Below are positions 4,298-45,975 of a stretch of 54,975 nucleotides of DNA, piece by piece (position 1 is the first letter of the stretch; every line of letters begins with the position of its first letter). The stretch comes from Nemertoderma westbladi (taxonomy: Eukaryota; Animalia; Xenacoelomorpha), in the NCBI GenBank assembly GCA_032718475.1, contig JAUCBJ010007676.1:1-54975 (forward strand). The letters run 5' to 3'. The position numbers and the translations under genes are program-made. The notes below the pieces were generated by a model. It worked only from the letters and a program-made list of their open reading frames with translations. It was not told where the DNA came from and did no database searches.

Positions 4298-4329
4298 TCA
4301 ATGTTGGCTAAATAAATGAATACGAGTCC

Positions 4330-4336
<7 letters not shown>
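4298..4336 (+). repeat. Left arm of a 39-bp inverted repeat (partner 7310-7348)
   Basis: TCAATGTTGGCTAAATAAATGAATACGAGTCCATGTTCT matches the reverse complement of 7310-7348 at 38/39 positions. Confidence 0.9.
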
Positions 4337-7250
<2,914 letters not shown>

Positions 7251-11600: not shown

Positions 11601-12466
11601 AAATAATTCTACCACATAAATCTTTTACGGCCCTCGTTTTATTATTTCACTAAACAAAATCACTCGTGCCGTAACGCTATAATGTGCTATTTTATGAGCA
11701 ACGACGTAATATAGTTAGTATTTAATTGCTCTAAATGTTGGGTCGAAATGCCGCCGTTTAATGATTTCCCTAGAGAACTCCAACCCAACCACTGATCAGA
11801 TGTGTGCAGAGGATTTAAAGATTTTAATAAACAATTTCAATTAATAATATTTCCTAACAGAATAAAGAGTTGAAAGACCAGTTTACAGAGTTAAAACTTT
11901 ATAAGCTAATAGCGCAAAATGTTGGAGTAAAGATTCAGCAAAGAGTTGATGGATCTGTTGACTTCTATCGCAACTGGGATGAATATGTTGAAGGATTTGG
12001 CGACCCGAATACCAACTTTTGGTTGGGGTTGGAGATGATCCACAAGCTGAGTAAAAACGGGGTGAAGTTGAGAGTCGATTTGTGGTTCACTGGAAGTGGA
12101 CGGACATATCCCAATAGTATTATTACAAAGAATTACAACAACGAACACAAATACGCGGAATACAACAACTTCTCTATCGGATCAGCTGCAACTAATTACA
12201 CCCTAAATGTATCCGGTTACCATGGTACTGCTGGTGACTCATTGGAGTATACGCACAACGGTCAGCCATTCTCCACCAAGGACCGCGATAATGACGGGAG
12301 CGGTTGGAACTGCGCCGTAGAATATACTGGGGCGTGGTGGTACACTCGCTGCGCGGACAGTAACTTGAACGGAGAATATGGTGGGGGGTGGTCGCTAGGA
12401 CCTTATTGGGATCATTTTACTGTAAGGAATCCGGCTTCTCGAGTAGAAATGAAGATTTGGATTTAG
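8697..12466 (+). CDS. Secreted fibrinogen-related protein (FReP; ficolin/tenascin-like FBG domain), multi-exon
   Basis: Exon 8697-8753 MSPVSLKLFSLLSALFLLQ (signal peptide, CAG|GTAAGT); exon 10061-10090 ANDGQCGAIN (ACAG|...|GTAAGT); exon 11217-~11349 coiled coil VMELEEQNTELEG...; possible mini-exon 11774-11811; last exon 11861-12466 with QRVDGSVDFYRNW.EY..GFG, FWLGLE.IH, GTAGDSL, FSTKDRDND, NCA...GAWWY..C..SNLNG. AATAAA signals follow at about 12548 and 12558. Middle exon junctions are uncertain. Confidence 0.85.
9473..10034. mobile_element. MITE (non-autonomous DNA transposon) in intron 1
   Basis: About 35-bp imperfect TIRs: GCTCTGCCGTGTAATGTGAAAAGACCGCAAGTC versus right-end revcomp GCTCTGCCGTACAATGTAAAAAGACCGTAAGTC; TA on both sides. 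Confidence 0.85.
10103..11104. mobile_element. Tc1/mariner-pogo-like non-autonomous element in intron 2
   Basis: TA|CAGTCATT...AATGACTG|TA with imperfect TIRs containing GAGACA; the right-end ~90 bp is duplicated internally (about 10425-10512 and 11015-11103). Confidence 0.7.
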
Positions 12467-14295: not shown

Positions 14296-15479
14296 TTATA
14301 AAGCACACGCTACCCAATTAGCGACACGTATTGACACGTAATTTAGTGACACGAATTTTAGTGACACGTATTTTAGTGACACGTATTGAAATTAATATTA
14401 CTCTACGTCCTACGATACGTGAATTATATCAAATTTTGTCAACTACACGGAAAAACCAATAAGGACATAAAATCAGGTTAAATTAGTAAAACTTTTTATT
14501 ATCTTATTTGCACTACTTGTTTTTTTCGTGCCCCAGGGGGCCACATTCAAAATGACCAGAAATTTTCTCGAATGTTATACAGTATTTGAGTTCTATAATC
14601 GCGATCAGCATCCAAAAAAACCGCTACATACTACAAATAAATTTATTCTAGCGAGACATAATTATAACAATTTTAGCACGAAAAATAATTTTGATGGGTT
14701 TCAGTGAAAGTCAACATAGGTCATATTCCTACTGTTGTAAGAGACAGTAACAAATTATACCGCAATATCCTACTGTAAAGTTTGTGAATCAAGGCATAAT
14801 CCAACCTTCTCACCAAAACAGTAACCTCTAAGTAAGCGAACCTATTGCAGTATTGGTCTCTTATAACCGGTGAGGCAGAAGACAGTCTACGAACGGACAA
14901 ACTTCGATAAAACAAAATCCCGCGCAGCGAATCCTAATAATCGTGCTGACTCACTGACGGACTAAAAGCGCTCGTATACTTTGCCGCGGTGTGATTTATA
15001 TGGTGTGGGTGAGAGAGACGCTAGCTAAAATATAACTAGCGGGCAAAGCTGCGGTATGGACAAAATTATTTTATATATTTCGAGGTGTAAATAATTCCTA
15101 ACGCGTGTGTGTTTTGATTCTAGGTCAAATTGATTTTGTAATCCTTCATGTAATATCATTTACTGGGTCCGGTGTACATTTTACAAATATTCTAATTTGG
15201 TAGTTTGTAGGTCTAATACTTACAAATGATAAGGCTCCTTCCCCTTTTGTGTATTTCCAGGACTGTGCCTGTGTCTTATCTGTGTACTGGTATCTCTCTG
15301 CCTATCCTCTCCTCCCGTAGAAACATGAAGGGTTTCCGCAGGTTTTTCCTGAATCAAAATAATACGGTTCCTAAATTTAAATTTTTGGCGTACAGTGTGT
15401 CGCTACTTCTACCTTCGATCTCAGGTCTTATACTTGGTAGCGAAGCATCGAACACTGTCTAACCTTTCAGGCGATGGGG

Positions 15480-18400
15480 TGTAAAAGCTTTTGCGGATAT
15501 AATCAGTCCCCTTGCCCGCAAAGTACCGTGTGGGTGTTTTAACGGACATAAAAGTTGTTTTTCTATATGGTCAATTCCATGGTGTCGGACGTTGGGGCAA
15601 ACCCAAATTTTCGGTTGTTTTTTACTATTTGTAGGAAGTTGTTAATTCAAGGTCAATCAGAGTAATGCTTATACTACCCCAAATTCGAAGCTCTATATGA
15701 GAACACATAATGAGTCCACTGAAAACTACTAGAGTTCTTGAAATTCGAGTTTAAAAAGTGGGTGTCGGACGTTTGAGTTTTGGGACAGTAATTTTTGGCT
15801 AAAAATTAAAACATTCGTGTAACAGTGCCGATGAGAGCTTTTGCAAATTTTGGCTAACCACAGTGATCAGCAACTATTTGGCTACCTATTATTAATCCAA
15901 CCTTTGTAATATCCTAAATCTAACTTACAGTTTTTGTAGTTTGATTGGAATTGAAATGGTGTCGGACGTTTGGAGTCGGACGTTTGGATTTGCCCACTAA
16001 TCCAGGTTCTTTTATTTGTACTTTGTTGGTAATGAATGCGAGGGTTCATATTCGCTTTGTCTTAAACAACATCTCTGCTTTACGGGGGTAGAAAAATAAA
16101 ATAATTTCGTTCACAACTTTTCAAACTATGGCACGTTTATCGAACTGTACATTTTTTTATCACTTATTTCTCGAAAACTTTGTATGGGGTGCTAAATGGT
16201 TTAATTATGGTTAAACACAATAATCTGCAACTATGTGTTTAACTAATATATATCAAACTTTTGTAATATCATCAATCTAACGCACAGTTATTGCTGTTTG
16301 ATTGTAAATTAAATGGTGTCGGACGTTTTGTGTCGGAATTATGGTGTCGGACGTTCCAATTATAACAGACTTATCCAGATTCTTATATTAGTACTAATGT
16401 TGATAAATCAATGGAAGTATCGTCCCGTGCTGTTACCCCCCTCCCACCGTCGCACTTAGCGATTCCCCCCCCCCCCCACCCCGCCCCACCCCCATTCCTG
16501 TTACCCCCACCCACCAAACACATACAATATTTCAAAATGTTTCAATCTAGATTACTGATAAGCAAAAACATTTTATTATTTTTCTCTCCAAAACAATAAA
16601 CAGATGTTACCAATTTGGGGAAAAGAACAAGTTATGGAGACGGTAAAAATAAGCAATGATGTTATCAAATGAGGGAAATGAGTAATAATACAATTATATA
16701 CATGGGCTAACAGGAATGTGGGGGGGGGGGGGGTAACATTACTTGAGTCTTGAGCGCGACAACATTTATAACAATGACCCATCTTGAAAGTCAAATCATT
16801 AGCCTAACGAAACAGGTAACAGGTAGCAACAGTCAAATAGTAATAGTGATGGTAATACCAACGACTATTCGACATGCTTATCGAATTATAATTAAATTGT
16901 TGTTCATTGCCGGTTACCCTATGGATTCAGTAAATTAGTTTGGTAGACCTTCAAACGTGGGAATCTCGAAACGGTATGTACTACGGATCCTGGCCGTTCC
17001 CCGTAACAAATTGGCTACTACTTGCTGGAATTAACTATTGTTTTATGTGACATTTTAATGCCGGATAAAGCCATCTAATCATGTTTTACATCCAATCACA
17101 TTACAGTTACATTTTAGGTGTCGGACGTTTGTCAAACAAAGGTGCATATTCTGGGCTTCTGTACATGCCTGTTGCCAAGAGCAACAACCAATAGCAGAGG
17201 CTTTCAGTTCGGCACTTCAATAACTTCCACAAAACCAACTCTATTTGATTGACCGTGTAAATAGAAAGAAAATTGTGAAAAAAAGTGTCGGACGTTTGTG
17301 AAATTTACAAGAGTGTATTTAACACCAAATGTTCTTTACATACAAGTATGCACTACCACTTTGTAATAGCTTAATTGATGCAGTAATAGATAACCTTGAT
17401 ATTGATACCAAAAACATAAATTTATTCCGTGTACTTTAGAAATTATGACGGATCATAAACTGACTTAATTTTGAAGAATTATCTCAAAAAAAGAGATAGT
17501 CTCATTCATTTTACTAATTCCTTACAAACGGCCCTAGTGATGACTTTTAAATATAATATTCATAATCTATGATAAAAATGGCACCAGAAAGTGTATTCAG
17601 TGATAACAAATTATGCATTTAATTTTTTAACTTTTTTGCCCGTTTCTTATGGAATTGACCATATGTGTGCTTTGGCGGACATGGCAAGACACAAAACCCG
17701 CAATGCGTCAAATCCTCTAGCACAGTGTAGCCTTGATGATTCAGATTACGACATCTAACAGCTGGTTGCTGGCATGGAAACGGCCGTTGGACACATGGTT
17801 CTTTGTTCAGCTTAACAGCCAATCAGAGCGATTTTTGCCTTAGACGTGGAGATATTCTACAGATCGTACTAGGCGTGTTCAGTCTTACGGTTTCAGTGTT
17901 ACTATTTTGTTGTTTCTATCTAGGCCAAGAACACCGGCTCTGGAGTCAATTTGTTTCAGACTTTAGAAGAAACATTAGTAGGCTTAGATTATAGAACGTA
18001 TAACTGTTATCAGTTCAATCAGTCTCACAGCGGTACAGTCTTACCGTGTTATAGTTTTCATATCATATCTTAACCTACCGTCTTAATGCTATTTACTGTT
18101 GTCATTATTTGTATCAGTTGGTTGAATATTATTACTTGGAGAACATCGATAAATAACCCAAATTTCCCAATTTTCTTGATACACTACAGGTTAGAGAGAC
18201 AGGTTACATATAGCGATTGCGACTTATATTATCGTGGTTTGTAGTGAATTTAATGCTATTTGATAGGCACTACATGAGTCAATTGCTGTTCTCTTTATGT
18301 ATGATAAAATTCATTGACGGTCGGCAGATTAGTGTGCAGTATTGTGCGTTACCGGTAGTGTGCATGATTGTGGCTGATAACTAAGCATTTCCTAAAGAAT

Positions 18401-18779
18401 GCGCCTCATACGTGAATCATAAGCCTTACCGTCTTACCGTTGTGTTTAGTATAAGTCATATCTCTGTTTACCTAGATAGAGCGCCACGTCCTAAAGGAAC
18501 TGTTAATATTTCCCGAAAGTGAATAATATTGGTCAGAAATTATTTATTAACGATCAATCGAATAATACAGTAAGCTTACACTGCAATAAAAATCTAAGCC
18601 CTCCGAATCCAGTCTCCCGGGTATATCCAGCGGGTGAATGGACGCGCACTAGGCTGGCTTCGGCTAATGTTGTGTTTATTGGTATTAAATACTTGTCATA
18701 TGCTAAAGTCTATTTATAAACCAAAAGACATATAAATTTTGGCAGGTTAAACTGCTAAAGGTCTTCAAAAGCGCGTACA
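15480..18779 (+). repeat. 5' LTR, interrupted by a 2.1-kb insertion at 15569-17660
   Basis: 15480-15568 plus 17665-18779 align collinearly with 32016-33212. Confidence 0.95.
15569..17660. mobile_element. Non-autonomous DNA transposon (2092 bp) nested in the 5' LTR
   Basis: 12-bp TIR GGTCAATTCCAT/ATGGAATTGACC, ATAT on both sides; the empty site CTATATGTGTGC is visible in the 3' LTR; about 8 internal GTGTCGGACGTT motifs; no transposase ORF. Confidence 0.93.
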
Positions 18780-18845
18780 ATAACAGTTATCTTCTTTATT
18801 GCAGTAAGCAATAAAGTTGAAAGTACCGGTCGACCAGTAAACCTG

Positions 18846-19083
18846 AATCGGTACTGCTGTAGGTCCGTAGGCCCAACTGCCAGAACCGGTACTGCTGTAG
18901 GTCCGTAGGCCCAACTGCCAGAATCGGTACTGCTGTAGGTCCGTAGGCCCAACTGCCAGAATCGGTACTGCTGTAGGTCCGTAGGCCCAACTGCTTGAAC
19001 CGGTACTGCTGTAGGTCCGTAGGCCCAACTGCCAGAATCGGTACTGCTGTGGGTCTGTAGGCCCAACTTTCCTAACCGGTACT
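18846..19083. repeat. 38-bp tandem repeat (~6 copies) in the retroelement 5' UTR
   Basis: Unit CGGTACTGCTGTAGGTCCGTAGGCCCAACTGCCAGAAT. Confidence 0.92.
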
Positions 19084-19257
19084 TCCAGTATAAGTACATT
19101 AGTATTATTCGATTTTGATTATTGTATACTGGTAGGTCTTAGTACTTAATCAGGGAACGGCCGCCCTGGTTTTTTATTGAGATTTTACTTATTTCTGTCG
19201 GTTTTATTTACATGTAAGTTAATATTGAGCTGAAGACGTGTAAGTCTGCTCAGATTG

Positions 19258-19838
19258 TTCAGATAATTGTAGGCTGGACTGTTGTCTGACTGTTGTTGGG
19301 TCTGGAGAGATTACGGCGTGTGTAGAGTCTGTCCGATAAAGTGCCAGTTAGTAAGTTGGGGCATCTTGAGTTGTAAGGTCAACCCCCTCCTAAAGAATAA
19401 GTCGTACTACCGTGTTAGAACGCATACTAACTAACCATTTTGGAATCTGCATATACTGTAGTTTATTTAGGCTTGATAGTAGTCTGCCAGCGTTTTAGCC
19501 TGTGTTTGTTTGTGTGGTCTGTTCAGGTACCGTAATAGTTATTACTCAGATATTTTGTAGGCTGGATTGTTGTCTAGCTATTATTAGGTCTGGAGAGATT
19601 GCGGCGTGCGTAGAGTCTGTCCGATAAAGTGCCAGTTAGTAAGTTGGGGCATCTTGAGTTGTAAGGTCAACCCCCTCCTAAAGAATAAGTCGTACTACCG
19701 TGTTAGAACGCATACTAACTAACCATTTTGGAATCTGCACATACTGTAGTTTATTTAGGCTTGATGGTAGTTTGCCAGAGTTTGGTTTGTATTTTGTTTG
19801 AGTATTCTGTACGGGTAGCGTAATATTTATTATTCAGA
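19258..19838. repeat. About 288-bp direct duplication in the 5' UTR
   Basis: TAGAGTCTGTCCGATAAAGTGCC...GGAATCTGCA occurs at 19323 and 19611. Confidence 0.9.
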
Positions 19839-21124
19839 GTTTATGCGATTATTGGCAACATTCATGTCCCCAAGTTTATTCCTACAGTAATTGTGCTTGT
19901 TACACATACCGTTATAGTTAAATTAACCCCGGTACTACACGGGCTGCTTGGCGTAGGTAAAGACTGGTGACTTTGTGCTCCTGTCACTCCAGCAGATGCC
20001 GTGGTTCTTTTAACTGTTCAAGTATATTTAACTGCTAGTTATCTGTTTTTAATAAGTACTTGTACCTAATTTAGGGTTTGGTGTACAGTGCTTTCCGAGA
20101 GTAATTAGTGTGGGCAGTGTATTGTGTTGTAAAGTGGTTAATAGGCACGTTGGATCTGGTAGTCCGCGGTAATTAACTTCTAGGTAGGAACACTCCGTGA
20201 TACATAACGTAGTACCTATAGCGATACGGCTATAGGTCGTCAGACGGTGGTGTTTTCCTATCTGGACAGCGCAATATATTTACTACTACTTATTATTTAC
20301 CGTAGTACCCTGTCCGTTGTAATAACCAGAATTCTAACCCTTTGTTAGACTGGTTTGTAGTTTCCCTGTAAAATTACCCTAAAATTTCGTACATAATATT
20401 TTTTGTTGTGTTTAATTAGAGAATTAATCTCACCCGTATCGTAAGTAATTTGTAGTATTAAGTAACTTAGGTAAATTAGAATTATTTGTTTTAGTATCCA
20501 ACAAGTAGCACTTCACTGAGAGCGCACAGCTTCTGTGTAGTGACTCCCCCCAGAAATAATAACATTTATTTCAAATATTGACAAAACCCATTTTAAACGG
20601 GTATATATATATTATAAATCAACTCAAACGATTTATAAATAGTAGGCCTGCCATACAACAACTAGGTCTCAATATCAGTTGGACTACTGCTTAAATAACG
20701 GTAATAAAGTAAGTTAAAGTAACCAAGTAACCCTAAAATTTCAGAAATTCAACTATTCTAAAATAATTGACATACCGGTATTTACCATAGGCTTATTATA
20801 TTTATTTCTATAAATTTGGGCTGAAATCATACAGGTATTCTGTAATTAATTCTAGTTTATAATTATACTTATATATACTATAAGTGTAAGCTGCATACCG
20901 GTATTCACGATAGGCCTATTATATATTTATATATATTTGTGCTAAAATTATATACCGGTATTCTGTGACAAACCTAGTCTACCATACTTATATATACTAT
21001 AAGTGTATACCGGTATTCTAATATATTGTAATTAATTACCGGTACTAGGCCAACGGTCATACTGAATTACTAGACTTGCTTTAACTGTAACTATAGCAGT
21101 AAGCATTCAACTGTATAGCTAAGT

Positions 21125-24100
21125 ATGTCTGACACAAAGCAAAACCTGTCAGACAGTCTAATCGATACAACCATCTGTGACACAGATAGGAGTGTGGAGC
21201 GATTAAGAAAGGGGTTCAGCTCACCTCCTACTGAAAGAAAAGTCATCCCTCCAGTAGTAGTATCAAACCCTAGGCTAATCCAACACCGTAGGTCTATCAT
21301 CGGCACTCGGGCCCAAGTCAAACGGAACCAAGAAGCAGCTGTCCAACAGCAGCAACATCCTAGTCAAGAAACTCGTTCCCAGCGACCCGATAGCTCCAGT
21401 AGTTCGGATACTGTAGAGCTGACCCCCGAACGCGGAGTGAAGATGGCGGCTACAGCCTATTCGGATCCCCTTCTCACCCTTCCTGCTGCAGTACTAACTA
21501 CTATATTGATTGCGGTGGAGGAACACCAAGTCGATTGGGCGAGAAGTAAGCGAGCGACCCAAGATAGTTATGCGGGATACGCCAGGGAAGAATTGATGTC
21601 TATTGTCGAGTCACAATGGAACTTTCCCGGACCCGGACTCCCGTTAGATTTGTCCGAAGCTACTTGGGAAGACATACACAGGATGGGAGTGACTAAAGAT
21701 ACGATGGATCCAGCTGTTTGGAAGAGGTCAGCAGCAGGATATGTGCAGGGATTCTTCGGCTCCTTAGAGCGATTAGAAGAACAACTGTTTCGACAACCCC
21801 AAGGACCTCAAGAGCAGGAAGAGCTGCTATATCAAGTACGCAAAAGAACCCTACGCATTAGACTAATCCTATCAGCCTTTGAGGAAACTTCCAAAAGAAG
21901 ACAGGACACGTCGCTGCATGTTGCTGTCAAGACTTGGTTCCAGCGGGTAGGTCTCAAAGTACAAGAAACGGCCCAGTAGAAATCCCAGCTGGCTGAGCGA
22001 CCAACCTATGAAGAATCAACCGATGCCACCTTTTCTCAAGTGGAAAGCGAAGTGACCGCAGAGAGATCGCGAACGAGAGACGCCATAGACATCTATCTGT
22101 CAGACTATCAACGTTTCCTAGGTGATGAAGAGTTGAGGAGACGACTGGCTGGACTTCGCCCCAATAGTGAAGGAGCCAAGCTTGTGTTGGACTCAATCGA
22201 TGCGGAAATGTTAGCTGCAAACCAAGCTAAATTTGATGAAAAACTCCGCCTCGCTAGAGTCCAAGAAGAACAAGTAAAGAAAAAACGGATAGAGGACCGA
22301 AAGGCAGCAGCAGTAGCAGCGGCAATGGCAGAAGCAGAAGCGGAAAGAAAGGCGGCAAAGGCAGTGGCAGAAGCAGAACGGAGAGCGTCTGAGGAGACTA
22401 CCCAACTGGAGTTGGAAAATCTGCAAGAGACGCAAGACTGCATAAATAAACAGTTAACTGCTAGTCAAATGCAGATGATGAGTCGATCTACTCCCAAACG
22501 CCAAGGATACACATCATCGGAGGAAGGCGAGACCACCGATCCTGAAGGCGGAGGAAATAGATCTCGTCTAAGCAGGCGTAGAAAAACATCTCACCGTCAA
22601 AAATTGCCTGATTTGCCCCCAGCGGTTAGAAGACAACTAGCTAGCACAGACTTAGGTAGTACAGAACCCACAGACCAAATTATTAAGGTCAAAAGACTCC
22701 CTACGATAGTTGATGAGCCTGAAATAATTAGGCCTGTTGTTCCCAAAGCCACTCCTGTGCTAGAGACCCCTGTACTTCCAGAGCTTAACTCTAAATTCCC
22801 TCTACACAGTACTACACTGCCTGTACCCGGTAGAACATTCCATGCGAATATCCCTGTCCTGGACACTGAGAGAGAAATCAAAGATTTGTCTCCCATCGTC
22901 CCGCGTCGGCCCGCTACAATGTTGGCGACTCCCACTTTGGCGGTCGAGTGGGTAGAGGAGGGATGGCGGGGGATGAATCTCCTGCTCGGACAGATGCAGG
23001 AGACTGTCCACCAACTTAAGGGAACAGTAAGGGAAAGTAGGTTAGAATTGCAAGAAGTGCAGCAAAGCATCGCGCTAGAACGCGACAAATTAGTCAATAT
23101 ACAAAAGGGTATACCAATACCCCCAGTAACATTGTGTCAACCTGTTAGGTCTGAAGTATCACATGCGCAAGGTGTGGAGCCTACACGCATCTATACTGCT
23201 AGTGAAGTAGAAACTCCTATAGCAAACCCTATTAAGGGTGATTATAAACCTGTTGTTAATGATATTCCCTATAGACCTGATAATAATCCAAGAAATTCAT
23301 ATACCGATAATTCTATATTAAATAACACGATGGCCCAAGAAAGCTTTACGCGTCAGATGGCTAGAACAGAAGCCCGCCAAGCGGTCAAAGTGGGAGAGAT
23401 CGTCAAATTCAATGGAGATGAGATGAAATGGTTACCTTTCAATGAATATTACAAAGATAGCATACAGAACTCTGTACTATCTAACGGAGAGAAACTTAGA
23501 TTCCTCATCAAGTGCTTGGAAGGACCTCCCAAGTTAATGGCGTTAAAGTTTATTGGACATCCAGATGGATTAAGACAAGTTTGGGAGACATTAAACATCA
23601 GGTATGGTAACAAGGATAACATAGCAAAGTATTTGTATGCAAAATTAGTAGCCCCCCGAAACTTCCTTAGTAGCGGGATAATAGAGTTTTCCGATGAGAT
23701 TCAGGAGATCTGTAGACAATTGGACTGGTTAGGTAAGTCTCATGAATATCAGAGTTCCATGGTTATTGGAGCCGTAGTCTCTACTTTACCAAAGGGTGGA
23801 TTATGTACACGCTGGGATAAGAAAGTGTTGTATATGAATGAGCAGCAACGACGAGGCCCTACCATGGCTGATCTTATGTCCTTCTTAGATAGTGAAGTAA
23901 AACTACAACTCATAAAGCAGTCCAGAGAGAAAACATCGGAAAATAAGGTAAGTGAGAAACCCGTTTCTAGGAGAAGAGTAACACCAGTGTATTACACTGA
24001 TGACGGCGAAAGCCAAGCTTCTCAAGAAGAGGACAGTGGAAAAGACACTGACAGATTTTACTATGTTAACAAAACCTCAAAAGACGTAAGTAAATACAAG

Positions 24101-26210
24101 GCTCGAACCAACGATAGGAGAGAACAGGTTGCCAAGACTCCTCCTCAGTCTCCTAACAGAATGCACGGAAGAAAGCCCGAAGAAAGAACGAGAGTGCATC
24201 ACGTTACCCAAGGTAAAGTGAGTAACATCAAACCAAACTGTGCGCTGTGCGACAGGCCCCACCGTTTGAGTGCGTGTGCTGAATTCCTAAAGAAATCCCT
24301 TGTAAACAGACGTGAAGTCATGTGGGATAAGCGGTTATGCTATAATTGCCTCAGACCAGGACACCAACGGCGAACCTGTTACTCCAATGTAAAGTGTGCA
24401 AAGTGCGGTGCGAAACATCACATCTTGTTACACAATGGATTCGAACGAGACAACCCGAGTCAGGTAAGTGAGCCCGAACTACATGTCCAATTCAGTGATG
24501 TAAATGACACTGATCAGGAGTCTGAGATGGAAGGATTCTATACTGACGAATTCTCCGACGCCAACGAATCCTGTTACCTAATAAATACCGCAGTGTATCG
24601 AGCACTTACTTACGAAAAGGACACCGACAATGAGTTCCCCCCAACTACCTTTGACAGACAACCATCTTTCAAAGCTCCAACTTCCAACGTAGGAATCAGA
24701 GAATTTCCTGTAGTGCAGGTAAGAGTTCACGGTCCTAACAAAAGTTACATAGTGAACGCCCTCCTTGACTCCGACAGCACAGGAACATTCATCGATCAAG
24801 AACTAGCCGAAGATATCTTTGCTGGACAACCCAAATTCCAAACTAAGTTGAATATGTCCGGAATTATGCAGGTTTGGAACTCTACCATAACGGCAAATTA
24901 CTATGTAGGTGCGTTGTCCACCCCCCAGGATAAATTAGGAGCACAAAGTATAAGGTCAGTAAAAATGGTGGCTATAAAGAACTTCGCTACTACCCAAGTA
25001 GAACCTTATAACTGGGACGAGGACGAGAGCATCCAACAGCTTAAGATACCTCGATTCCCGACAGATTATCCTGGAGTGCAAATACTCATCAGCCAAAACG
25101 CGCATGAGGCGCTCGAGACATTGGAGAAACGGCCTGCTCAACCACAGTCACTACAAACCTATGCGGTAAGAACTAGAGTAGGTTGGTACTTTACTGGCCC
25201 TTCCCGCAGAACTCTCAAAGAGAGATTACCACAAGAAAGAATATACCAGGTAAATGATTGGGAAGTGGAGAGCAGTGAGGTGGACGAACTAACTGAGGGA
25301 ACACCATACTCCTCAGATAATGACGACATCTACCAACTCTTCGATGAAGAGAACACAATCGACCTACTTACAGAAAACAAAACTTGGAAAAACCAGGTGA
25401 ACCTATGTCAACTGATTCGCCCATCGGGACCCATTGATTACAATGACGAACTAAATGATGAGATAGAGCGCTACAATGCTAGAACTTGGGACGAACTCGC
25501 CGTACGATTCTTTACTCAAGAATTGGTAGAGCCCAATTCATACGATAAGGCCCTATCGATAGAAGAAGAAAGAGCCAAGCAAATCCAGGAAACAACTACA
25601 CGTTTTTTAAAAGATCAAGGTAGATATGAAATCGGCCTACCATTTCGAAAACGAGAACCTAGATTTATAAATAACCCTCCCTTGGCAGAGAAAAGAATCA
25701 CTCAATTACATCGACGCCTTACGGCTAATGCTTCAGCTAAAGAAATGTACCAAACTCAGTTGAAGAAATTTATTACAAAGGGATACGCGGAGCAAGTACC
25801 GGAAGGAACACCAGTGACTGAGAGAACGTATTACTTAACACATCATTACGTTCCCAAACCCGGTAAACCCCATGAAGTACGAGTCGTATTCGATGGCTCC
25901 ACTCTATATATGGGCCAATCCCTCAATTCCGAGTTGTTACCAGGACCCAACTTACTCCAATCTTTGTTGGGAATACTTTTAAGATTAAGACAATATTCCA
26001 TCGCGTTTGCCTCCGATATAGAAGGAATGTTCTTACAAGTCAATGCGCTGGATAGAGATAGAGACAGCCTAAGATTTCTGTGGTGGCCTGAAGGAGATCT
26101 CAACCAGAAACCGGTAAAGTACTGGATGACCATCCAGGCTTTTGGGATCATATCAAGCCCTTCCAACGCCTGCTCCATGGTGCGGACCACTGCGAATGAC
26201 AACCTTCTCA
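21125..26210 (+). pseudogene. BEL/Pao gag-protease-start of RT, one in-frame TAG at 21977-21979
   Basis: ORFs 21125-21979 and 22040-26293 are in the same frame with a single TAG between them. Capsid-like KFNGDEMKW...EKLRFLIKCLEG; triple knuckle CALC..PH....C / CYNC....H....C / CAKC...HH..LH; protease ALLDSDSTGTFI; RT start VRVVFDGS, DIEGMFLQV, LRFLWW. Confidence 0.92.
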
Positions 26211-29115
26211 AAAGAGGTGATAGACAACATCAAGCGCGATATATACATGGACGACAATTTAAAGTCCCTTCCATCAGTAGAAGAAGCCATTGATGTCGCG
26301 AAAGGAACGGTAGAGTGTTTGAAAAGAGGTGGATTTCGACTGACGAAATTCACCAGCAACTCCCGTGAGTTTCTGGAAGCGATACCGGTAGAAGACCGAG
26401 GAACGGAAGACCTAGACTTAATAAAAGACAATCTTCCAGAAACCAAGACGCTTGGCTTGAAGTGGGACACAGAAAGAGATATCCTGTTTTTTCAGCTAAA
26501 ACAGCGAGATAATCCAGTTCGGACCAAACGGATTTGTTTAAGTATCCTGAGTACTTACTTCGACCCATTGGGATTTATTAGCCCAGTTATATTGATTGCT
26601 CGGAGTTTAGTACAACAAATGTGGCTTGAAAACCACTCATGGGACGATCCACTTAAGGGAGAACTGTTAACGAGGTGGATGAAATGGGAAGATTCTCTGC
26701 CTGCCATCGAGAGCTTTGTAATTTCCCGTGCATATTTTGGTCATGTTCTCCCTACGTATTCCTATCAACTCCATGTGTTTGGAGACGCCAGCGACATGGG
26801 AATAGGTATAGTAGCATATCTGCGAGTCAAAACTCCGGATGGAATCAAAGTCGCCTTGGTTACCTCTAAGGCATTGATTAACAACAAGTTAAAGGTTCCT
26901 CGAGCGGAGTTAAAAGCAGCTTTATACGCTACAGCCATCGGCCAGAACGTAACAGAACAAATCGACTATCCACTGGAGAAAACTGTTTATTGGACCGACG
27001 CTTTACTTGTGTTGGAGTATATAACCAATGAAGTCTGTCAGTTCAGCGTTTTTGTTACTAACAGGGTAGCTATTATTCTTAGTCGCACAAAGATAGATCA
27101 ATGGAGACATTGCCCTGGTACGATTAATCCAGTCGATATTGCCTCCAGGGGAGCAACTCCACAGGAACTGATAGATACTCCAGACTGGTTGGGTGGACCC
27201 GACTTCCTGAGCAAGGAAGAGGATGAATGGCCTCCTCACCTTACTACGGCGGAGATTAGACAAGCCAAGGGAGTGGCGAAAGTCAAACCTAAAACCCGGG
27301 CGAGTAAATCGAAGTTATTTAAACCGACGATCGATCTATCTGTATTACATACTTCCGGAAACGATGCTGCGGATCCACAATCCCTCGCCACAAATAAGGC
27401 TGTCTTGGAAATTAGGGATAGAGATTGGAAATCTGGAATACCAGACGTCTCGCAAGGAATCTCACCCCTGCTGCAGAGAGCAATACATCACTACAGTTCC
27501 TGGAATCGGCTTTGTAAAGCCGTCACATATTTAAGGCGATGTTTGCATCATCACTACTCCAGGACGAAGACCATTAGTGATACCGCTCCATTGACATCTG
27601 CGCAAGTTCATGTTATTAAAAATTTACCCCAATATAAGACATCCGACCGGTTTCTAAAGGAGAAAATCAGTTACCAGGAGCATGAAGAAACCAATAAGCA
27701 GATACTGAGACTCCTGCAATGCTATGAGGATTCCGATAAGTATTTCCTGTTGTTGAGAAATCCGCAGATGCGCTTAAGGGATCGCTTCTCTAGCACAATG
27801 ATAGATGGGTTAATACGTGTTGGAGGAAGACTCACCAATGCACCATTATCCTTTGACACTAAATTCCCCATACTCATTAGAAATCTTGAAGTACAAATCA
27901 AGATGATTGTAGATGTTCACAGTAAACTTTATCATGCTGGTAGAGAACGAGTTCTTAGCGAAATCCGAACTCGCTATTATTTTTATAAACCCCGTAGAGC
28001 TCTGAACCAAGTTTTTAGGAACTGCATACCCTGTAGGAAAGCATTCAGTAGGCCTTTAACACAGCGAGAGGCAGAATTACCTAGGGAACGAGTAAGCTTC
28101 TATGAACAACCTTTAACCCTTATTTGGCCCTATTGAAGTATATCGTGCTAGGACCATAGTCAAGAGATGGTGTGTCATCTTCGTATGCATGACTTGTAGA
28201 GCCATCCATCTCGATATGGTGAACGATCTATCTACCAACAGCTTCGTCTTAAGTTTACGCCGACAGATCGCTCGCTTCGGGACTAGTAATACCATGAGAT
28301 CGGATAAGGGAACGAACTTCATTGGTGCCAACAACGAAATCCAGGCTTACGTGAAGGACTGGAACCAAAGACAGGTGGACGATCAGCTAAGGATAACAGC
28401 ATCTAGCTGGACCTTCAACGCCGCCGACGCCCCTTGGTGGGGAGGAAGTTGGGAGAGATTAATTAGAAGTATCAAGACCGCATTTCACTTTATAGTGCCA
28501 TGCCACGCGTATCTCACCGACAAACTTTTGCGGACGTTAATGGAGGAAATAGCTGCCTATCTCAACTAGAGACCGCTTATGCCAGTCTCATCGAGTCCCG
28601 ATTCCCTGGAAGCGCAAACACCCGCGCACTTCCTACTGAAGAAACCTGTAGCCATGCTCCAACGATCGGAGATTAACGATGGAGACGAATACTGCCGTCG
28701 AACTTGGCAACTTATGCAGTTGCTATCCCGTCGTTTCGCTGACCATTTCGAGAAACATTATCTGCCCACGTTACAACTTCGAACTAAGTGGTTTGCGCAG
28801 CTTGAAAACGTCAGCGCCGGAGATATGGTGCTTATTGTAGATTCAGAACTTCCACGTAAACGGTGGCAGACAGGTCGTATCATCGAGACTCACATCTCGG
28901 ATGATGGTTTAGTACGCTCGGTAGAACTCGTCGTCATGCGGCGTAACTTCAAGAAGCCAGGCATAATCTTTGAGACGCAACAGCTCAACCGCCCAGTTGG
29001 TCGTTTATGTTTACTGGAAAGAGACAGAGAACTCTCCGGAAACTATGGAAGACAAGACACTCTTCCCATGACCACCTCCCTAATTCCTCAAACATCTAGG
29101 GACTCCCCAACGTGA
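26205..29115 (+). pseudogene. BEL/Pao pol: RT (YMDD), RNase H, integrase; frameshifts near 26205 and 28120, stop at 28567
   Basis: IYMDD, LGLKW, FDPLG, LHVFGDAS, PRAEL, YWTD, W.HCPG..NP.D.ASRG, IRVGGRL, H....HAG...C..C, CMTCRAIHLD, SDKGTNF, APWWGGSWERLIRSIK, W..GRI...DGLVRSV. Confidence 0.93.
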
Positions 29116-29460
29116 TACGTCTGGAGTGGGTGCATGACTATATTATTCTATCTATTTTTATTATATTTTATATGCGAACGTTATTATGTACTTTATTATA
29201 ATCGTTTTATTTAATTTTATTTAGTAGAATGTTATTTTAGATTATTTAGTAGGTTAGTGCAATATATTAGTGTTTATTACGTAATTACACATAATATATT
29301 TAATATGACGGCGAGAAATAATTCTTCCTTTTTCCTTACTTTTTCCTTTGCGATATTGCTCTTCTACTTTATATTAAATAATACATATAGTAGCGTGATG
29401 TCCCTATAACAGTAGCGTAAAACGCAAATAAATCTGTTAAACCTTTTGACCATCTGTAAT

Positions 29461-29720
29461 TTTAGTCGATTAAGATATCGCGGCACCCACCGATATACTT
29501 GAAAGACAAATTCTAGAATCAGTGGTTAACGTCCCCAGACAAGTTCTGGAATAAATCGGTGCCTATCTTAAATATTAATTTAATATTTATTAAAATCTGT
29601 AAAATTCAGATCCTTTAAAATTTCTAGTCAATTAAGATATCGCAGCGCTTACCGATACTCTTAAAAGACAATTTTATAGAATTAAGGATCCTAGGTCCCC
29701 AGACATGCTCTGGAATAAAA
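29461..29720. repeat. Diverged direct duplication (period about 162 bp) between pol and ORF3
   Basis: TAGTC(G/A)ATTAAGATATCGC...GTCCCCAGACA...CTGGAATAAA occurs twice. Confidence 0.8.
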
Positions 29721-30454
29721 TTGTGTCAATTTTACCATCAAATAATAAAATTCACGGGAATAAATTTAAATTCATATCTTAAATGAATTTCATAAATTGT
29801 CATTTTGTGCAATTTATAACATTCCCAAAATTCCATTAATTAATAGATCATGGGAGCGGAGATTCATCCTATTGAGTGTATTAGAGTGCGAGAATCTCCG
29901 ACATATAGGCAATAGCCGATAAAATTAATAAAATCATGTATAAAGAGGATATTGACAATTAAAGAATTACTATTAAATAGCATTCCAGATCTGTATGCAT
30001 GAGAATTACCCTAATTCTACCGCTAGCTTTCCATAATGTCACCATAGCAACACCCACGCTAGAATTAGAAGCAAGTTAAAAGAACAATAGACGGCACTGA
30101 CTAACGGACAAATGGCCTGTATGTGTACAATTGGTGACAGTTGTGTTGGAATTTGTGCGTTTATAGGTGAATGTTACTGCTAAAGTATGTTTACAGTAGC
30201 TAGTCGCAATTGTAAAAGTAGCCCAACTCTCCTATAGAAAGAACCTAAAGTGGATCCAAGCCTTTGGGACGGACAGTGGAGTGACTTGTGCCGGTTATCG
30301 TTGTCGTGCTGTTGCTACATGTTGGCGTAAACACCGCGACGACGGTACATCGGCGCTGAGAATCCCACTGTCCGGGGGCAACGAGAGGTAGGCAGCGACG
30401 CCCGCTAGCCTAAACATAAACTCATTTCGATATTAATAAACTCAGATAGCATAT

Positions 30455-31938
30455 ATGACGGAGTTGATAGAAGATGATCTTGGTATCAGGGAGCGATATA
30501 CTCTACCTTTACAAGCATTTGTGGATAGCTTAATACGCGGTGAAGCCGATCCAACCATTACGGAGGACGATGGTCGTTATATTGAACCGCCGATGTCCCA
30601 AGAGCAACTTACGCGTGAATTGGACTATCGAAAATTCACCGCTCGCTATACGCATCGTAATGGTACGTATATGGACTTCCTAACTACCGGCCATCCTATC
30701 GATTTACATGATACGGACGATGTAGACAACGAAAGGGAAATGGTTCTATTTAAATATCATACCCAGCGGAGTCGTAACGATAAACCGAGAATAGATCACG
30801 AAAATTCTATTCGTAACAGACTGGAAAGAGAAAACGTTGAAGAACCGGATAAACGCATCGACTTCAACGACTAACTAGAATTTTTGAGAGAAACCTATCT
30901 CAACATCGCCAGTCAGCAGAACCTAGAGACTCGATATCCTCAAGGTATACATCATGACCCTATTGTAGAACTCAAACGGCTCTATTTCACTATGATGTAT
31001 CTTACCGCCGATCGTCCACTACCTTTTATCCCGTATAGTTTTGAACAAATGGAAGAATATTGCAAAACTGGAGAACAATCACCCGCGTTTCCTTGTTTTA
31101 TTGCGCATATTGCAGACTCAATAACTTGCATATTTTTGCAGTTTGCCCTCAATTTATGACTCAATGTCACCATTGTCAACTAAAGGGACACGCCAGTTTT
31201 GATTGCCCTTTTAATCACGATTTGGAAAGCGTAGATGAAATGATCACACTACGTTACATCAGAGCTTGGGAAGCGAACGCTGATTTACATTGTGATTCGC
31301 GCCATCGCTATTATCCTGGACGCGCTTACGAAGGAGTTTATGCGTTCCATCCTTATCTATTCGCTTCTGTCGAACAGAAATCACGCATATCGAGTTACGA
31401 ACTACTGAAGCGCGTCGGAGAATGTATTTCAACCAAATTCGTACGCAAATTTCTCAGGAGTGTTAATCCTAGCGACCTTCATTCCTATAACCTAATCAAT
31501 TTTATCCATCAGGATCCGGACTATGGAGACTTATTTGTTAACTCACACCCCGAGTTACAGGAAGTATATCGACGGCCTTACGAATACCGAGCCCGCGAAC
31601 GCTAGTTAGAAAGAACCATTAAACCCAGGAAGTTTCTGACTGCCTATGGTCCACCCACGGCTCTCGTTCAGACCACTCGTAAAGGACCCGTAAGAGCGGC
31701 CGTCCTAAAACGCGCTCTCAAGGCCGTTAGACCCCTCTCCCCCGACGTTGATGTCAATCAACCCGGCACTTCGACTGGCGGATACACCGACCATAATCCT
31801 ACACCCTCTGATGCAATCATATTGCACCCTTCACCCAGGAGTTATAGCCCTCCTTGTAAAGTGGCTCGCCCCAAAGAGAAAAAGACTCTGGCCAGCTTTA
31901 AAAAACTGCGTAAACGCCGTCCACGCAAGAAAGAGTAA
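30455..31938 (+). pseudogene. Accessory ORF3 of the BEL/Pao element: ~490-aa protein with twin zinc knuckles and a basic C-terminal tail
   Basis: ORFs 30455-30874 and 30884-31159 share a frame (one TAA between them); a frameshift near 31095 joins 31060-31605; after one TAG the frame stays open to TAA 31938. Motifs CAYCRLNNLHIFAVC-x6-CHHCQLKGHASFDC and KKLRKRRPRKK. Confidence 0.75.
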
Positions 31939-32015
31939 CCGTTTAGAGTATTTACGTATATTAGAAACTGTGATTTTGTATATTTATAGACTTGAATCCC
32001 ATTTTCTGGGAGCGG

Positions 32016-33212
32016 TGTAAAAGCTTTTGCGGATATAATCAGTCCCCTTGCCCGCAAAGTACCGTGTGGGTGTTTTAACGGACATAAAAGTTGTTTTTCT
32101 ATATGTGTGCTTTGGCGGACATGGCAAGACACAAAACCCACAATGCGTCAAATCCTCTAGCACAGTGTAGCCTTGATGATTCAGATTACGACATCTAACA
32201 GCTGGTTGCTGGCATGGAAACGGCCGTTGGACACATGGTTCTTTGTTCAGCTTAACAGCCAATCAGAGTGATTTTTAGACGTGGAGATATTCTACAGATC
32301 ATACTAGGCGTGTTCAGTCTTACGGTTTCAGTGTTACTGTTTTGTTGTTTCTATCTGGGCCAAGAAGTTAATTTGGAGTCAATTTGTTTCAGACTTTAGA
32401 AGAAACATTAGTAGGCTTAGATTATAGAACGTATAACTGTTATCAGTTCAATCAGTCTCACAGCGGTACAGTCTTACCGTGTTATAGTTTTCATATCATA
32501 TCTTAACCCACCGTCTTAATGCTATTTACTGTTGTCATTATTTGTATCAGTTGGTTGAATATTATTACTTGGAGAACATCGATAAATAACCCAAATTTCC
32601 CAATTTTCTTGATACACTACAGGTTAGAGAGACAGGTTACATATAGCGATTGCGACTTATATTATCGTGGTTTGTAGTGAATTTAATGCTATTTGATAGG
32701 CACTACATGAGTCAATTGCTGTTCTCTTAATGTATGATAAAATTCATTGACGGTCGGCAGATTAGTGTGCAGTATTGTGCGTTACCGGTAGTGTGCATGA
32801 TTGTGGCTGATAACTGAGCATTTCCTAAAGAATGCGCCTCATACGTGAATCATAAGCCTTACCGTCTTACCGTTGTGTTTAGTATAAGTCATATCTCTGT
32901 TTACCTAGATAGAGCGCCACGTCCTAAAGGAACTGTTAATATTTCCCGAAAGTGAATAATATTGGTCAGAAATTATTTATTAACGATCAATCGAATAATA
33001 CAGTAAGCTTACACTGCAATAAAAATCTAAGCCCTCCGAATCCAGTCTCCCGGGTATATCCAGCGGGTGAATGGACGCGCACTAGGCTGGCTTCGGCTAA
33101 TGTTGTGTTTATTGGTATTAAATACTTGTCATATGCTAAAGTATATTTATAAACCAAAAGATATATAAATTTTGGCAGGTTAAACTGCTAAAGGTCTTCA
33201 AAAGCGCGTACA
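32016..33212 (+). repeat. 3' LTR (1197 bp)
   Basis: TGTAAAAGC...GCGCGTACA; matches the reconstructed 5' LTR with few substitutions and indels. Confidence 0.96.
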
Positions 33213-33730
33213 ATGGGCGAATAACTATGAATCAGTATTGTGGGTGGTCTCCTGTCTACATTCCTCCGATGTTCCCGTTCATTGCCGTGGCCCGCTGTCT
33301 AGCCTGCCATTCTGTCCCTCAGTTGGGTTCACCGTGGTGATACATGATAAAAAAGGGCAGATAGCGATAATTCTGACTTTATTACAGATAACCAACAAAT
33401 TATATATTAATACAAACAGTGTAATCTGGTATAACTGTGTAACTAATGAATAATCTGGTATACAATATAGTCAAGAAGTGAGATAACTAATGAACAAAAC
33501 CACACCTTTTATAGAAAATTTGTGCCGCTAACAATCGAGATAAATCTAGATTGTTCTATGAGTTCCATTAGGTTTTTAAAGATAATCATTGGTCCAGCAT
33601 ACATATAACTTGCACGACATTGGTTACTGTCAAATAACTACAATCGCATTGGTTAATCTATCTTGAGCAAATGCAATTAAATCGTAGCGGTCAATTCAAA
33701 TGAGTTGAAATTTAGCACAAAAAATATTTC

Positions 33731-33800
33731 GCACCTGCTAGGATTTGAACTCGATACCTACTAAACGATTTTCTAACGCATAACCGACTGAGCTAGGGCT
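33731..33800 (-). mobile_element. tRNA-derived SINE head or tRNA pseudogene
   Basis: Minus strand has A box TAGCTCAGTCGG and B box GAGTTCAAATCC at tRNA-like spacing; no convincing acceptor or anticodon stem. Confidence 0.65.
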
Positions 33801-35011
33801 GGGGCAAGATAGCCTGATCGGAGGGGGGAAGAAAAAATGATAACAAAGGAGGAAAAAAAGGGGCAAGAGAAAAGGGGAAAAGAAAGGAAAGGAGAAAAGG
33901 AAAATAAGGAAAGGGAAAGAAAAAGTCAAGAAAGTTAGAGATCTTAGTTTACAAGTATCACTATCTCAACCTCGTGTATGTCTGTCTGATTGTCTGACGG
34001 TCTGTCGTCAGTCGGTCTAATCTTTGCTCTCAAATAAATGAGGCAGTTTCTGGCGTCGCACAATTTCCTGGTCCGCCACTAGGTGGGGCTAAATATATTG
34101 TTATCTAGGCTTACTAACTCACTCTTGTGCGGCGCGAAGGCCCACCCCACGCCCACGTGTTGCGTTAAAAAAGATAATAAAGACGAAAGGGAAGGAAAAT
34201 AAAAAAGAGGGTTTGAAATTAAGGGAAAATATAAATTTGAATTTTACATATTTCTTTGCTTTTAATAATTAGTAGATAAATATTTATTGATTAAATAAAT
34301 CCACTCATTACACAAATGAACTGCAGTGAAACGTTTATGTAATTAAAACAATGTACCAAAATGGCACAAAAAGAGGTATACCGTTATACAAATATACATA
34401 CCATTATATTGAAATCATATTAGCTATTATAATAAATTGAGCTATTATAAAATCGTAGGTCTTTTCTAAAATACAGAATATTATTATATTGTAATATAAT
34501 AAAAACTATTTACATTACGGTAAAATTGTACATCGGTAAAATTGTAATATAATAAATGATAAACGGTACTTTAGGCCTAAAGTTATGGGATCAAAAACTG
34601 AGAAGTTATGGGTTCAAACACTGTAAAGTTATGTTATCAAACGCTGTAAAGTTACGTACAGATTCCTACTCCCACTCGGGCTGTTAGCAAGTGCTATGAA
34701 CTTGTCGCGGTAAAACTTCAATCCTTTAAAATGGTGAGATTTCAACATTGTTTAAAGACCAATAAGTAGCTATTAAATGACAGTGGAATACCACAAAAGA
34801 CCAGATAACTGAATATAATATCATTATATATATTATATATATATAATATAATATCATTTATGTTACATTGATGACTCACTGCTGAGTCTGCTGTGATAAG
34901 TCAAATGTATACAGAGTAAAGCAGGCCTTGACCAATAAGGCCAATAATCAATCCTTGAACTGGTGGCATCTACTACTAGCACAAGTAAACCACATATCCA
35001 CGTAAACCACA

Positions 35012-37216
35012 TGTATCGTTCTAGAACTTATTATTTATTTCTACAGAATGAATAAGCACATAAATAATTTTATCGTTCTAGAACTGATTATTTATTTCTA
35101 CAGAATAAATAAGCACATAAATAATTGTATCGTTCTATAACTGATTATTTATTTCTACAGAATGAATAAGCACATAAATAATTGTATCGTTCTAGAACTG
35201 ATTATTTATTTCTACAGAATGAATAAGCACATAAATAATTGTATCGTTCTAGAACTGATTATTTATTTCTACAGAATGAATAAGCACATAAATAATTGTA
35301 TCGTTCTAGAACTGATTATTTATTTCTACAGAATGAATAAGCACATAAATAATTGTATCGTTCTAGAACTGATTATTTATTTCTACAGAATGAATAAGCA
35401 CATAAATAATTGTATCGTTCTAGAACTGATTATTTATTTCTACAGAATGAATAAGCACATAAATAATTGTATCGTTCTAGAACTTATTATTTATTTCTAC
35501 AGAATGAATAAGCACATAAATAATTGTATCGTTCTGTAACAGATTATTTATTTCTACAGAATGAATAAGCACATAAATAATTGTATCGTTCTAGAACTGA
35601 TTATTTATTTCTACAGAATGAATAAGCACATAAATAATTGTATCGTTCTATAACTTATTATTTATTTCTACAGAATGAATAAGCACATAAATAATTGTAT
35701 CATTCTAGAACTTATTATTTATTTATACAGAATGAATAAGCACATAAATAATTGTATCGTTCTATAACTGATTATTTATTTCTACAGAATGAATAAGCAC
35801 ATAAATAATTGTATCGTTCTAGAACTGATTATTTATTTCTACAGGATGAATAAGCACATAAATAATTGTATCGTTCTAAAACTGACTATTTATTTCTACA
35901 GAATGAATAAGCACATAAATAATTGTATCGTTCTAAAACTGATTATTTATTTCTACAGAATGAATAAGCACATAAATAATTGTATCGTTCTAAAACTGAT
36001 TATTTATTTCTACAGAATGAATAAGCACATAAATAATTGTATCGTTCTAAAACTGATTATTTATTTCTACAGAATGAATAAGCACATAAATAATTGTATC
36101 GTTCTAAAACTGATTATTTATTTCTACAGAATGAATAAGCACATAAATAATTGTAGCGTTCTTAAACTGATTATTTATTTCTACAGAATGAATAAGCACA
36201 TAAATAATTGTATCGTTCTAGAACTGATTATTTATTTCTACAGAATGAATAAGCACATAAATAATTGTATCGTTCTAGAACTGATTATTTATTTCTACAG
36301 AATGAATAAGCACATAAATAATTGTATCGTTCTATAACTGATTATTTATTTCTACAGAATGAATAAGCACATAAATAATTGTATCGTTCTAGAACTTATT
36401 ATTTATTTCTACACAGAATGAATAAGCACATAAATAATTGTATCGTTCTAGAACTGATTATTTATTTCTACAGAATGAATAAGCACATAAATAATTGTAT
36501 CGTTCTAGAACTGACTATTTATTTCTACAGAATGAATAAGCACATAAATAATTGTATCGCTCTATAACTGATTATTTATTTCTACAGAATGAATAAGCAC
36601 ATAAATAATTGTATCGTTCTAGAACTTATTATTTATTTCTACACAGAATGAATAAGCACATAAATAATTGTATCGCTCTATAACTGATTATTTATTTCTA
36701 CAGAATGAATAAGCACATAAATAATTGTATCGTTCTAGAACTGATTATTTATTTCTACAGAATGAATAAGCACATAAATAATTGTATCGTTCTAGAACAT
36801 ATTATTTATTTCTACAGAATGAATAAGCACATAAATAATTGTATCGTTCTAAAACTGATTATTTATTTCTACAGAATGAATAAGCACATAAATAATTGTA
36901 TCGTTCTAGAACTGATTATTTATTTCTACAGAATGAATAAGCACATACATAATTGTATCGTTCTAAAACTGATTATTTATTTCTACAGAATGAATAAACA
37001 CATAAATAATTGTATCGTTCTAGAACTGATTATTTATTTCTACAGAATGAATAAGCACATAAATAATTGTATCGTTCTAGAACTGATTATTTATTTCTAC
37101 AGAATGAATAAGCACATAAATAATTGTATCGTTCTAGAACTTATTATTTATTTCTACAGAATGAATAAGCACATAAATAATTGTATCGTTCTAGAACTGA
37201 TTATTTATTTCTACAG
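35012..37216. repeat. 57-bp AT-rich tandem array (~38 copies)
   Basis: Unit AATGAATAAGCACATAAATAATTGTATCGTTCTAGAACTGATTATTTATTTCTACAG. Confidence 0.97.
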
Positions 37217-37441
37217 GATGAGGAGGGGAACTCATTGTTGGAGACAGAGATGATACATTTGGCCAGCGAATTACTTTACGGTAACCTTGACAACGTAGCC
37301 ACCAACTATCTGGAAGAAAATATAGACGTTACCATGGAGACAGAGAACACGATGAGTGGGTTCAGCGAGGGGGGGTTCTTCTATTCTGGGGAGGATGTTT
37401 CGGATGGACTCGGTGACGGGATATGGGAAACATTTAGTTAG
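37217..37441 (+). CDS. Probable terminal exon of an unidentified gene (acidic 74-aa peptide)
   Basis: Follows TTTATTTCTACAG|G with an abrupt GC rise; reads DEEGNSLLETEMIHLASELLYGNLDNVATNYLEE...GIWETFS*. Upstream exons not identified. Confidence 0.45.
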   Translation, partial: DEEGNSLLETEMIHLASELLYGNLDNVATNYLEENIDVTMETENTMSGFSEGGFFYSGEDVSDGLGDGIWETFS

Positions 37442-37457: not shown

Positions 37458-37903
37458 CATCTGGGTTCGACTTTACCATTCAGTAGTCGTCTGGTACCAG
37501 CGCATCTGGGTTCGGCTTTACCATTCAGTAGTCGTCTGGTACCAGCGCATCTGGGTTCGGCTTTACCTTTCAGTAGTCGTCTGGTACCAGCGCATCTGGG
37601 TTCGGCTTTACCATTCAGTAGTCGTCTGGTACCAGCGCATCTGGGTTCGGCTTTACCATTCAGTAGTCGTCTGGTACCAGCGCATCTGGGTTCGGCTTTA
37701 CCATTCAGTAGTCGTCTGGTACCAGCGCATCTGGGTTCGGCTTTACCATTCAGTAGTCGTCTGGTACCAGCGCATCTGGGTTCGGCTTTACCATTCAGTA
37801 GTCGTCTGGTACCAGCGCATCTGGGTTCGGCTTTACCATTCAGTAGTCGTCTGGTACCAGCGCATCTGGGTTCGGCTTTACCATTCAGTAGTCGTACCAG
37901 CGC
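37458..37903. repeat. 45-bp tandem array (~10 near-identical copies)
   Basis: Unit CATCTGGGTTCGGCTTTACCATTCAGTAGTCGTCTGGTACCAGCG. Confidence 0.96.
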
Positions 37904-45921: not shown

Positions 45922-45975
45922 CTAGATCCAACCAACTGGCCTGACAGACTGTGGCTGCCAGCCACCAAAGACAAG

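Follow-up and report, generated by a model that had tools for sequence, protein, structure and literature searches.

We found in the window (the whole 54,975-nucleotide stretch of Nemertoderma westbladi DNA that was analysed) a BEL/Pao retrotransposon that likely primes its minus-strand DNA synthesis with its own RNA, through pairing of 18000–18010 with 18780–18790, and not with a tRNA (probability about 0.7). The 5' LTR of this element has visible boundaries and is not followed by a TGG site. The 11 nt adjoining it have an exact complement inside the LTR, and a like arrangement was found in a second element of the window and in many relatives. Self-priming is known from Tf1, where an 11-nt pairing is followed by an RNase H cut of the primer. 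At the level of the clade, self-priming is well supported; for this copy, we infer it by analogy with Tf1. The initial annotation had proposed it as a candidate, and it is retained here as the best reading, with the relatives keeping a complement in other letters.

Architecture of the element

The element and its parts were delimited as follows.

15474–15479, plus strand: left target-site duplication candidate, 6 bp, 5/6 identical to 33213–33218
15480–33212, plus strand: BEL/Pao element, recognized by its LTR pair, target duplication and Pao-type domains
15480–15568, plus strand: first part of the 5' LTR, starting TGTA, 89/89 identical to the start of the 3' LTR
15569–17660, no strand assigned: DNA-transposon-like non-coding insertion of 2.1 kb in the 5' LTR, with 12-nt terminal inverted repeats and an ATAT duplication
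17665–18779, plus strand: main part of the 5' LTR, ending TACA, from comparison with the 3' LTR
18845–19068, plus strand: 38-bp tandem repeat in the leader, 5.9 copies
21119–29115, plus strand: gag-pol of BEL/Pao type, with DUF1759, Peptidase_A17, Integrase_H2C2 and DUF5641
32008–32015, plus strand: polypurine tract preceding the 3' LTR
32016–33212, plus strand: 3' LTR, 1197 bp, holding a copy of the complement at 32433
33213–33218, plus strand: right target-site duplication candidate, with 1 mismatch in 6 to the left one

Without the insertion, the element was about 15.6 kb long. Its 5' LTR had been placed from ~17661 onward in the initial annotation; the actual start is at 15480, the 2.1-kb insertion that splits the LTR having been overlooked. 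A six-frame Pfam search of this insertion (15569–17660) gave no match. The LTR alignment showed 16 substitutions and 7 gap columns between the 5' and 3' copies, over ~1200 bases. Contigs from one DNA run of the host (X4) had loose ends at 18780, i.e., at the 5' LTR border.

The assignment to BEL/Pao follows from the Pao-type gag/pol domains, in the order protease, RT, RNase H and integrase, and from the TG...CA LTRs, the polypurine tract and the target duplication (1 mismatch in 6). In alignments the RT piece was ~27–46% identical to BEL relatives, and the RVT_1 profile gave no match to it. With these Pao-type domains, the element does not belong to the Tf1/sushi group of Ty3/gypsy chromoviruses. 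Stops or frameshifts interrupted the gag-pol at about 21979, 26205, 28120 and 28569. Between the integrase and the 3' LTR (29116–32015) there were ~2.9 kb of decayed open-frame-like stretches, a possible extra gene; a plus-strand Pfam search of them was without match, as was an Rfam search of 15400–34000.

Elsewhere in the window, we recognized an open frame of 935 aa that contains an RVT_1 domain (4312–7119), probably a non-LTR retrotransposon, and a single-frame fibrinogen C-terminal domain (11858–12466), ~50% identical to homologues of several invertebrate phyla. Tandem arrays had units of 57 bp (35012–37221, 38.7 copies) and 45 bp (37458–37895, 9.7 copies).

Primer site and its complement in the LTR

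18780–18790, plus strand: non-TGG primer-binding position adjoining the LTR end (offset 0), ATAACAGTTAT
18000–18010, plus strand: exact complement of the primer-site 11-mer, putative self-primer, from an exact match search

The 11-mer ATAACAGTTAT was found once in the window, at 18780, where it adjoins the LTR end (...GTACA, 18779). Across the whole window its reverse complement lay only at 18000 and 32433, equivalent sites of the two LTRs. The initial annotation had reported the non-TGG 11-mer directly after the 5' LTR, its exact reverse complement at 18000–18010 and a CCAAT box upstream of the latter, and all three were found again, the CCAAT box at 17819. The nearest TGG downstream of the 5' LTR was at 19050, 270 nt away, and with no TGG at the LTR end the 3' end of a mature tRNA is excluded as the primer. 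Up to this TGG there was no 18-nt landing site for a tRNA-Arg or tRNA-Gly 3' end, and no tRNA genes were found in the window.

As in Tf1-type elements, an LTR segment of ~11 nt is thus perfectly complementary to the site adjoining the LTR. The primer site started with AT, not GT, which was also the case in three relatives. Splice-built complements of at least 10 nt at offset 0 were sought in both BEL/Pao elements of the window and none were found; both complements are contiguous. When the 1197-nt LTR was dinucleotide-shuffled 5000 times, an 11-nt complement appeared in 10 shuffles at offset 0 and in 15 at offsets 0–3, and 8 of 13200 internal 11-mers had a complement in the LTR.

The primer-site 11-mer is near-palindromic and AT-rich, a caveat raised before that holds for this element and fails for the second element and the relatives. 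The two 11-mers, both AT-rich, are also direct repeats of each other with one mismatch. In this element alone, the match could have arisen by chance, or from duplication of a near-palindromic DNA motif that takes no part in RNA pairing. A genome scan inspects many elements, other complements of 11–13 nt were present within the 2.3-kb leader, and the folding predicted for this copy was weak, all of which would fit such an origin. We consider it quite improbable, given a chance of about 0.002–0.003 at a position set in advance and a single differing base between the two 11-mers that is the very base perfecting the complement. The site moreover lies at the end of a block shared across the family, and in the clade the pattern recurs in non-palindromic form.

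Copies of the family in the host

17952–18011, plus strand: LTR block common to many family copies, ending just past the complement, from host DNA contigs

The contigs of four DNA runs showed that the element belongs to a high-copy family. Within 18000–18010, they held no substitution or indel at 3% or more, and indels were listed at 17961–17994; no substitution was listed anywhere in 17935–18020, and a missing entry is no proof of constancy. The lack of listed variants at 18000–18010 lends modest support to self-priming. From 18010 to 18020 the depth collapsed, and joints as well as loose ends lay at 18011–18012. X5, a presumed RNA run of another organism, gave no coverage of 17825–18064.

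Because the shared block ends at ~18011–18012, ahead of the GTTC arm, the outer GAAC/GTTC stem is probably of no importance. An imperfect hairpin had been described around the complement; the hairpin is present (−3.3 kcal/mol), and it is this outer stem that we no longer consider part of the argument. The block end suggests that the hairpin's outer 3' arm, together with an initiator-like TCAGTT beginning at 18010, is absent from most family copies. In the present copy, the TCAGTT counts against self-priming.

Second BEL/Pao element in the window

45216–53051, plus strand: second BEL/Pao element, with 538-bp LTRs, a 5-bp target-site duplication, gag and protease
45544–45552, plus strand: exact 9-nt complement of its own primer site, from an exact match search
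45754–45762, plus strand: non-TGG primer site at offset 0, adjoining the LTR end

No RT, RNase H or integrase matches were found in this element (45216–53051). Its 9-nt complement is non-palindromic, and an equal length was reached in 13 of 5000 shuffles. The predicted probability of its primer-site helix was 0.0. Five further copies of the primer-site 9-mer followed up to 45921, giving six in the leader overall. The element had inserted within a 21-bp tandem array, which it splits into 40986–45216 and 53052–53107; the array had ~200 copies and long open frames on both strands.

Relatives in metagenomes

A metagenome scan gave 78 BEL loci among 558 confirmed stretches, and 43 of the 78 were used, in which LTR and leader were visible; near-duplicates and loci without these parts were dropped. 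Scans of viral_contigs for relatives found none. For sites 0–4 bases past a CA or TA, we took the longest upstream complement, counting contiguous matches as well as those interrupted by a GT-AG intron. The region borders were fixed after the sequences had been read, the scan being blind to position and not to region. Complement-only and reverse-only transforms served as decoys.

Complements of at least 11 nt were found in 26 of the 43 loci, compared with 4 and 9 in the decoys (Fisher p 9e-7 and 4e-4), some of the 26 looking spurious by eye (the top match of L018, and L045, L062, L063 and L067). The best complement was exactly 11 nt long in 18/43. Start letters were unconstrained in the scan, and the best site began with GT in 23 loci and with AT in 3; this makes 26/43 with a GT/AT start, against 5 and 9 in the decoys and 16.5% of candidate positions. 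Contiguous matches alone numbered 9 at 11 nt (decoys 3 and 4), and 11 at a minimum of 10 nt (decoys 6 and 11), the latter without enrichment over one decoy.

We hand-picked 25 loci, which together with both window elements carried 26 distinct primer-site 11-mers. A match of at least 10 nt to the own LTR was found in 25/27, a circular figure, the sites having been chosen for their match; specificity is shown by the cross figure, with such a match to another LTR in 14/702. Primer site and LTR complement thus change together across the families. The initial annotation had named a lack of complementarity among relatives as evidence that would count against self-priming, and the relatives were found to retain it, with different letters.

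The complement was contiguous in 8 of the 25 hand-picked relatives and formed only across a GT-AG intron in 17. Of the spliced cases, 10 passed a strict splice-site filter applied to 32 loci and 8 others did not. An intron-spanning complement can act only in RNA, and this is the strongest argument for a functional pairing. Sister pairs with and without the intron were L007/L016 and L028/L027.

In seven loci the LTR end was fixed by a second LTR copy. Three of them had the complement at offsets 0–3 (L023, L035 and L015, in which the copy ends at the contig end), and in L029 it was present and imperfect. Two loci of one family (L066:61–77 and L073:23–39) had a TGG-type site 5 bases past the LTR end and no self-complement. 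L065 (7296–7952) had both LTRs, the 5' copy interrupted, and neither an 8-nt complement nor a TGG-type site. L030 (1080–1190) and L057 (128–175) had tandem copies of the primer-site sequence in the leader, a feature shared with the second window element.

Phylogenetic placement

In a quick tree of the RT end plus RNase H piece, the element fell, on a long branch, within a group with support of 99 that held all metagenome loci. The same tree had a weak (87) cluster of the element with two TGG-type loci. The RT tree did not resolve its placement, and the trees, from which named BEL references (Sinbad, Sparrow, Surcouf, Suzu and others) were absent, do not establish that it is nested among the self-complementary families.

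This weak grouping with the two TGG-type loci of one related family would suit a primer derived from the host, namely an internal fragment or half of a nuclear or mitochondrial tRNA, or another small RNA, with the LTR match as a coincidence or by-product. Priming by half-tRNAs is known in Ty1/copia lineages, according to the portions of PMC6317226 available to us. Such a primer would leave unexplained why 26 different 11-mers each match their own LTR, and why matches are formed only across an intron, and we regard it as improbable.

Further possible pairings between leader and LTR

18556–18568, plus strand: LTR 13-mer, exact complement of leader 19102–19114
19102–19114, plus strand: second primer-site-like 13-mer, starting GT after TACA-TTA, 323 nt inside the element
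18580–18590, plus strand: LTR 11-mer with AATAAA (18585), the only one in this LTR part, complement of 18795–18805
18795–18805, plus strand: leader 11-mer, exact complement of 18580–18590, the poly(A)-signal region

Self-priming at 18780 has a possible competitor in the leader of this copy. When the scan used for the relatives was applied to the element, it put 19102 (13 nt) ahead of 18780, which counts against self-priming at 18780. After a CA, a 13-nt complement as at 19102 was obtained in 4 of 2000 shuffles, and the context of 19102–19114 resembles the primer sites of relatives. It is possibly a relic or an alternative primer site. Priming there would imply an LTR end at ~19098, and we rejected this end, as both LTRs and the target duplication end at 18779/33212.

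In folding predictions, the helix at 18780 had a probability of 0.50, 0.52 and 0.12 in three short RNAs starting at 18000, and of 0.0 when the RNA started upstream, at 17881 or 17957, or when the leader extended to 19150. Where it was 0.0, the 19102 helix was predicted at 0.3–0.9. The loop between complement and primer site was 769 nt in this element, compared with 119–204 nt in the contiguous relatives. Shortening of this loop by splicing was considered and rejected, since an intron lying 3' of the primer would vanish from both LTRs if spliced RNA were copied. For the contiguous relatives, predicted helix probability was 0.55–1.0 in 8/8 when the RNA began at the complement, and in several of them it dropped once 20–40 upstream bases were added. 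That the helix of the relatives is best when the RNA begins at the complement fits a transcription start at or near it. Long-range folding predictions are unreliable, and the weak values still count against self-priming in this element.

Three exact complements of at least 11 nt between the LTR and the first 620 nt of the leader were reached in 9 of 2000 shuffles, and one of the three covers AATAAA. The pairing of 18795–18805 with 18580–18590 could mask the poly(A) signal of the 5' LTR alone, its predicted pairing probability being ≤0.05. These complements, and the predicted strength of the 19102 helix, speak for an RNA-level pairing that is real and serves regulation or structure: it may conceal the 5' poly(A) signal, control packaging or keep the primer site covered, with the primer supplied otherwise, e.g., by a short LTR-derived RNA in trans or through the 19102 site. 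The complements of the relatives have the geometry of primer sites, being placed at offsets 0–4 to the apparent end of the LTR, usually with 11 nt and a GT/AT start, and 19102 lies outside the observed LTR borders. A purely regulatory or structural pairing is therefore rather unlikely in our judgement.

Proposed mechanism and comparison with known systems

In the self-priming that we favor, transcription would begin no further downstream than 18000, and the RNA would fold with its 5' part onto 18780–18790. A nuclease, probably the element's own RNase H, would cut just after 18010, and the RT would extend the new 3' end, copying the stretch from 18779 to 18011. Splicing out of an LTR intron would generate the primer sequence in most relatives, and the present element would be an intron-free, deep-branching form.

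More broadly, at roughly even odds, a large BEL/Pao branch of aquatic animals dropped tRNA priming and uses its own 5' RNA as primer, usually after an LTR intron has been spliced out, which would restrict priming to the processed 5' end. Intron-free forms would have arisen repeatedly, and the present element would be a deep-branching one that adds leader–LTR pairings over the poly(A) signal.

The closest parallels are Tf1/Tf2 and Tj1 of fission yeasts, in the Tf1/sushi group, which have no tRNA site and a primer site complementary to the 5' segment of their own RNA (available portions of PMC4600332 and PMC5445492); self-priming was described for Tf1 and proposed for Tj1 (same portions of PMC4600332). 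Like them, our element has no tRNA site and has a primer site complementary to a segment of its own 5' LTR. Unlike Tf1, it is an animal BEL/Pao element and not a Ty3/gypsy chromovirus, it has the long loop described above, and its complement would only presumably lie at the first nucleotides of the RNA. Also unlike Tf1, most of its relatives form the complement only after intron removal. By this comparison, the element likely works like Tf1 without belonging to the group of Tf1.

For plant Tcn1 and TAR (Houba, Osr-1), self-priming was predicted from sequence alone (available portions of PMC6317226). Those elements belong to the gypsy and copia superfamilies, whereas this one belongs to BEL/Pao. 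In Cer7 of C. elegans, a self-encoded primer has reportedly been proposed.

The fungal copia element GalEa has a "conserved hairpin site", without a tRNA site and with a near-palindromic short sequence adjoining the LTR (available portions of PMC5445492). Our element likewise lacks a tRNA site and has a near-palindrome next to the LTR. In GalEa, the partner lies 12–41 nt downstream in the leader, according to the same portions, whereas here it lies upstream, inside the LTR.

In the ICTV description, a tRNA-Arg or tRNA-Gly pairs through its 3' end with a site of 18 nt in Belpaoviridae; their replication is called poorly understood and is assumed to be tRNA-primed (PMC8742986). The element agrees with this family in its Pao-type gag-pol, TG...CA LTRs (1.2 kb) and polypurine tract, and differs from it in the absence of the 18-nt tRNA site and in its greater length.

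Our literature search found no report of self-priming in BEL/Pao; subscription journals, Repbase, GyDB and supplements were outside its scope, so an earlier report may exist. The term "PBS" was absent from the main text of three BEL surveys, as far as this text was available (PMC554778, PMC3118150, PMC6238403). In the surveyed literature, as far as its text was available, self-priming was reported only for gypsy and copia lineages.

Self-priming in this element makes exact predictions, namely that the RNA begins no later than 18000 and that the primer ends at 18010. If true, self-primers would occur in all three LTR superfamilies, and it would be explained why a primer site is missing from many aquatic BEL elements. 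In the spliced forms, initiation of reverse transcription would then be coupled to splicing by the host.
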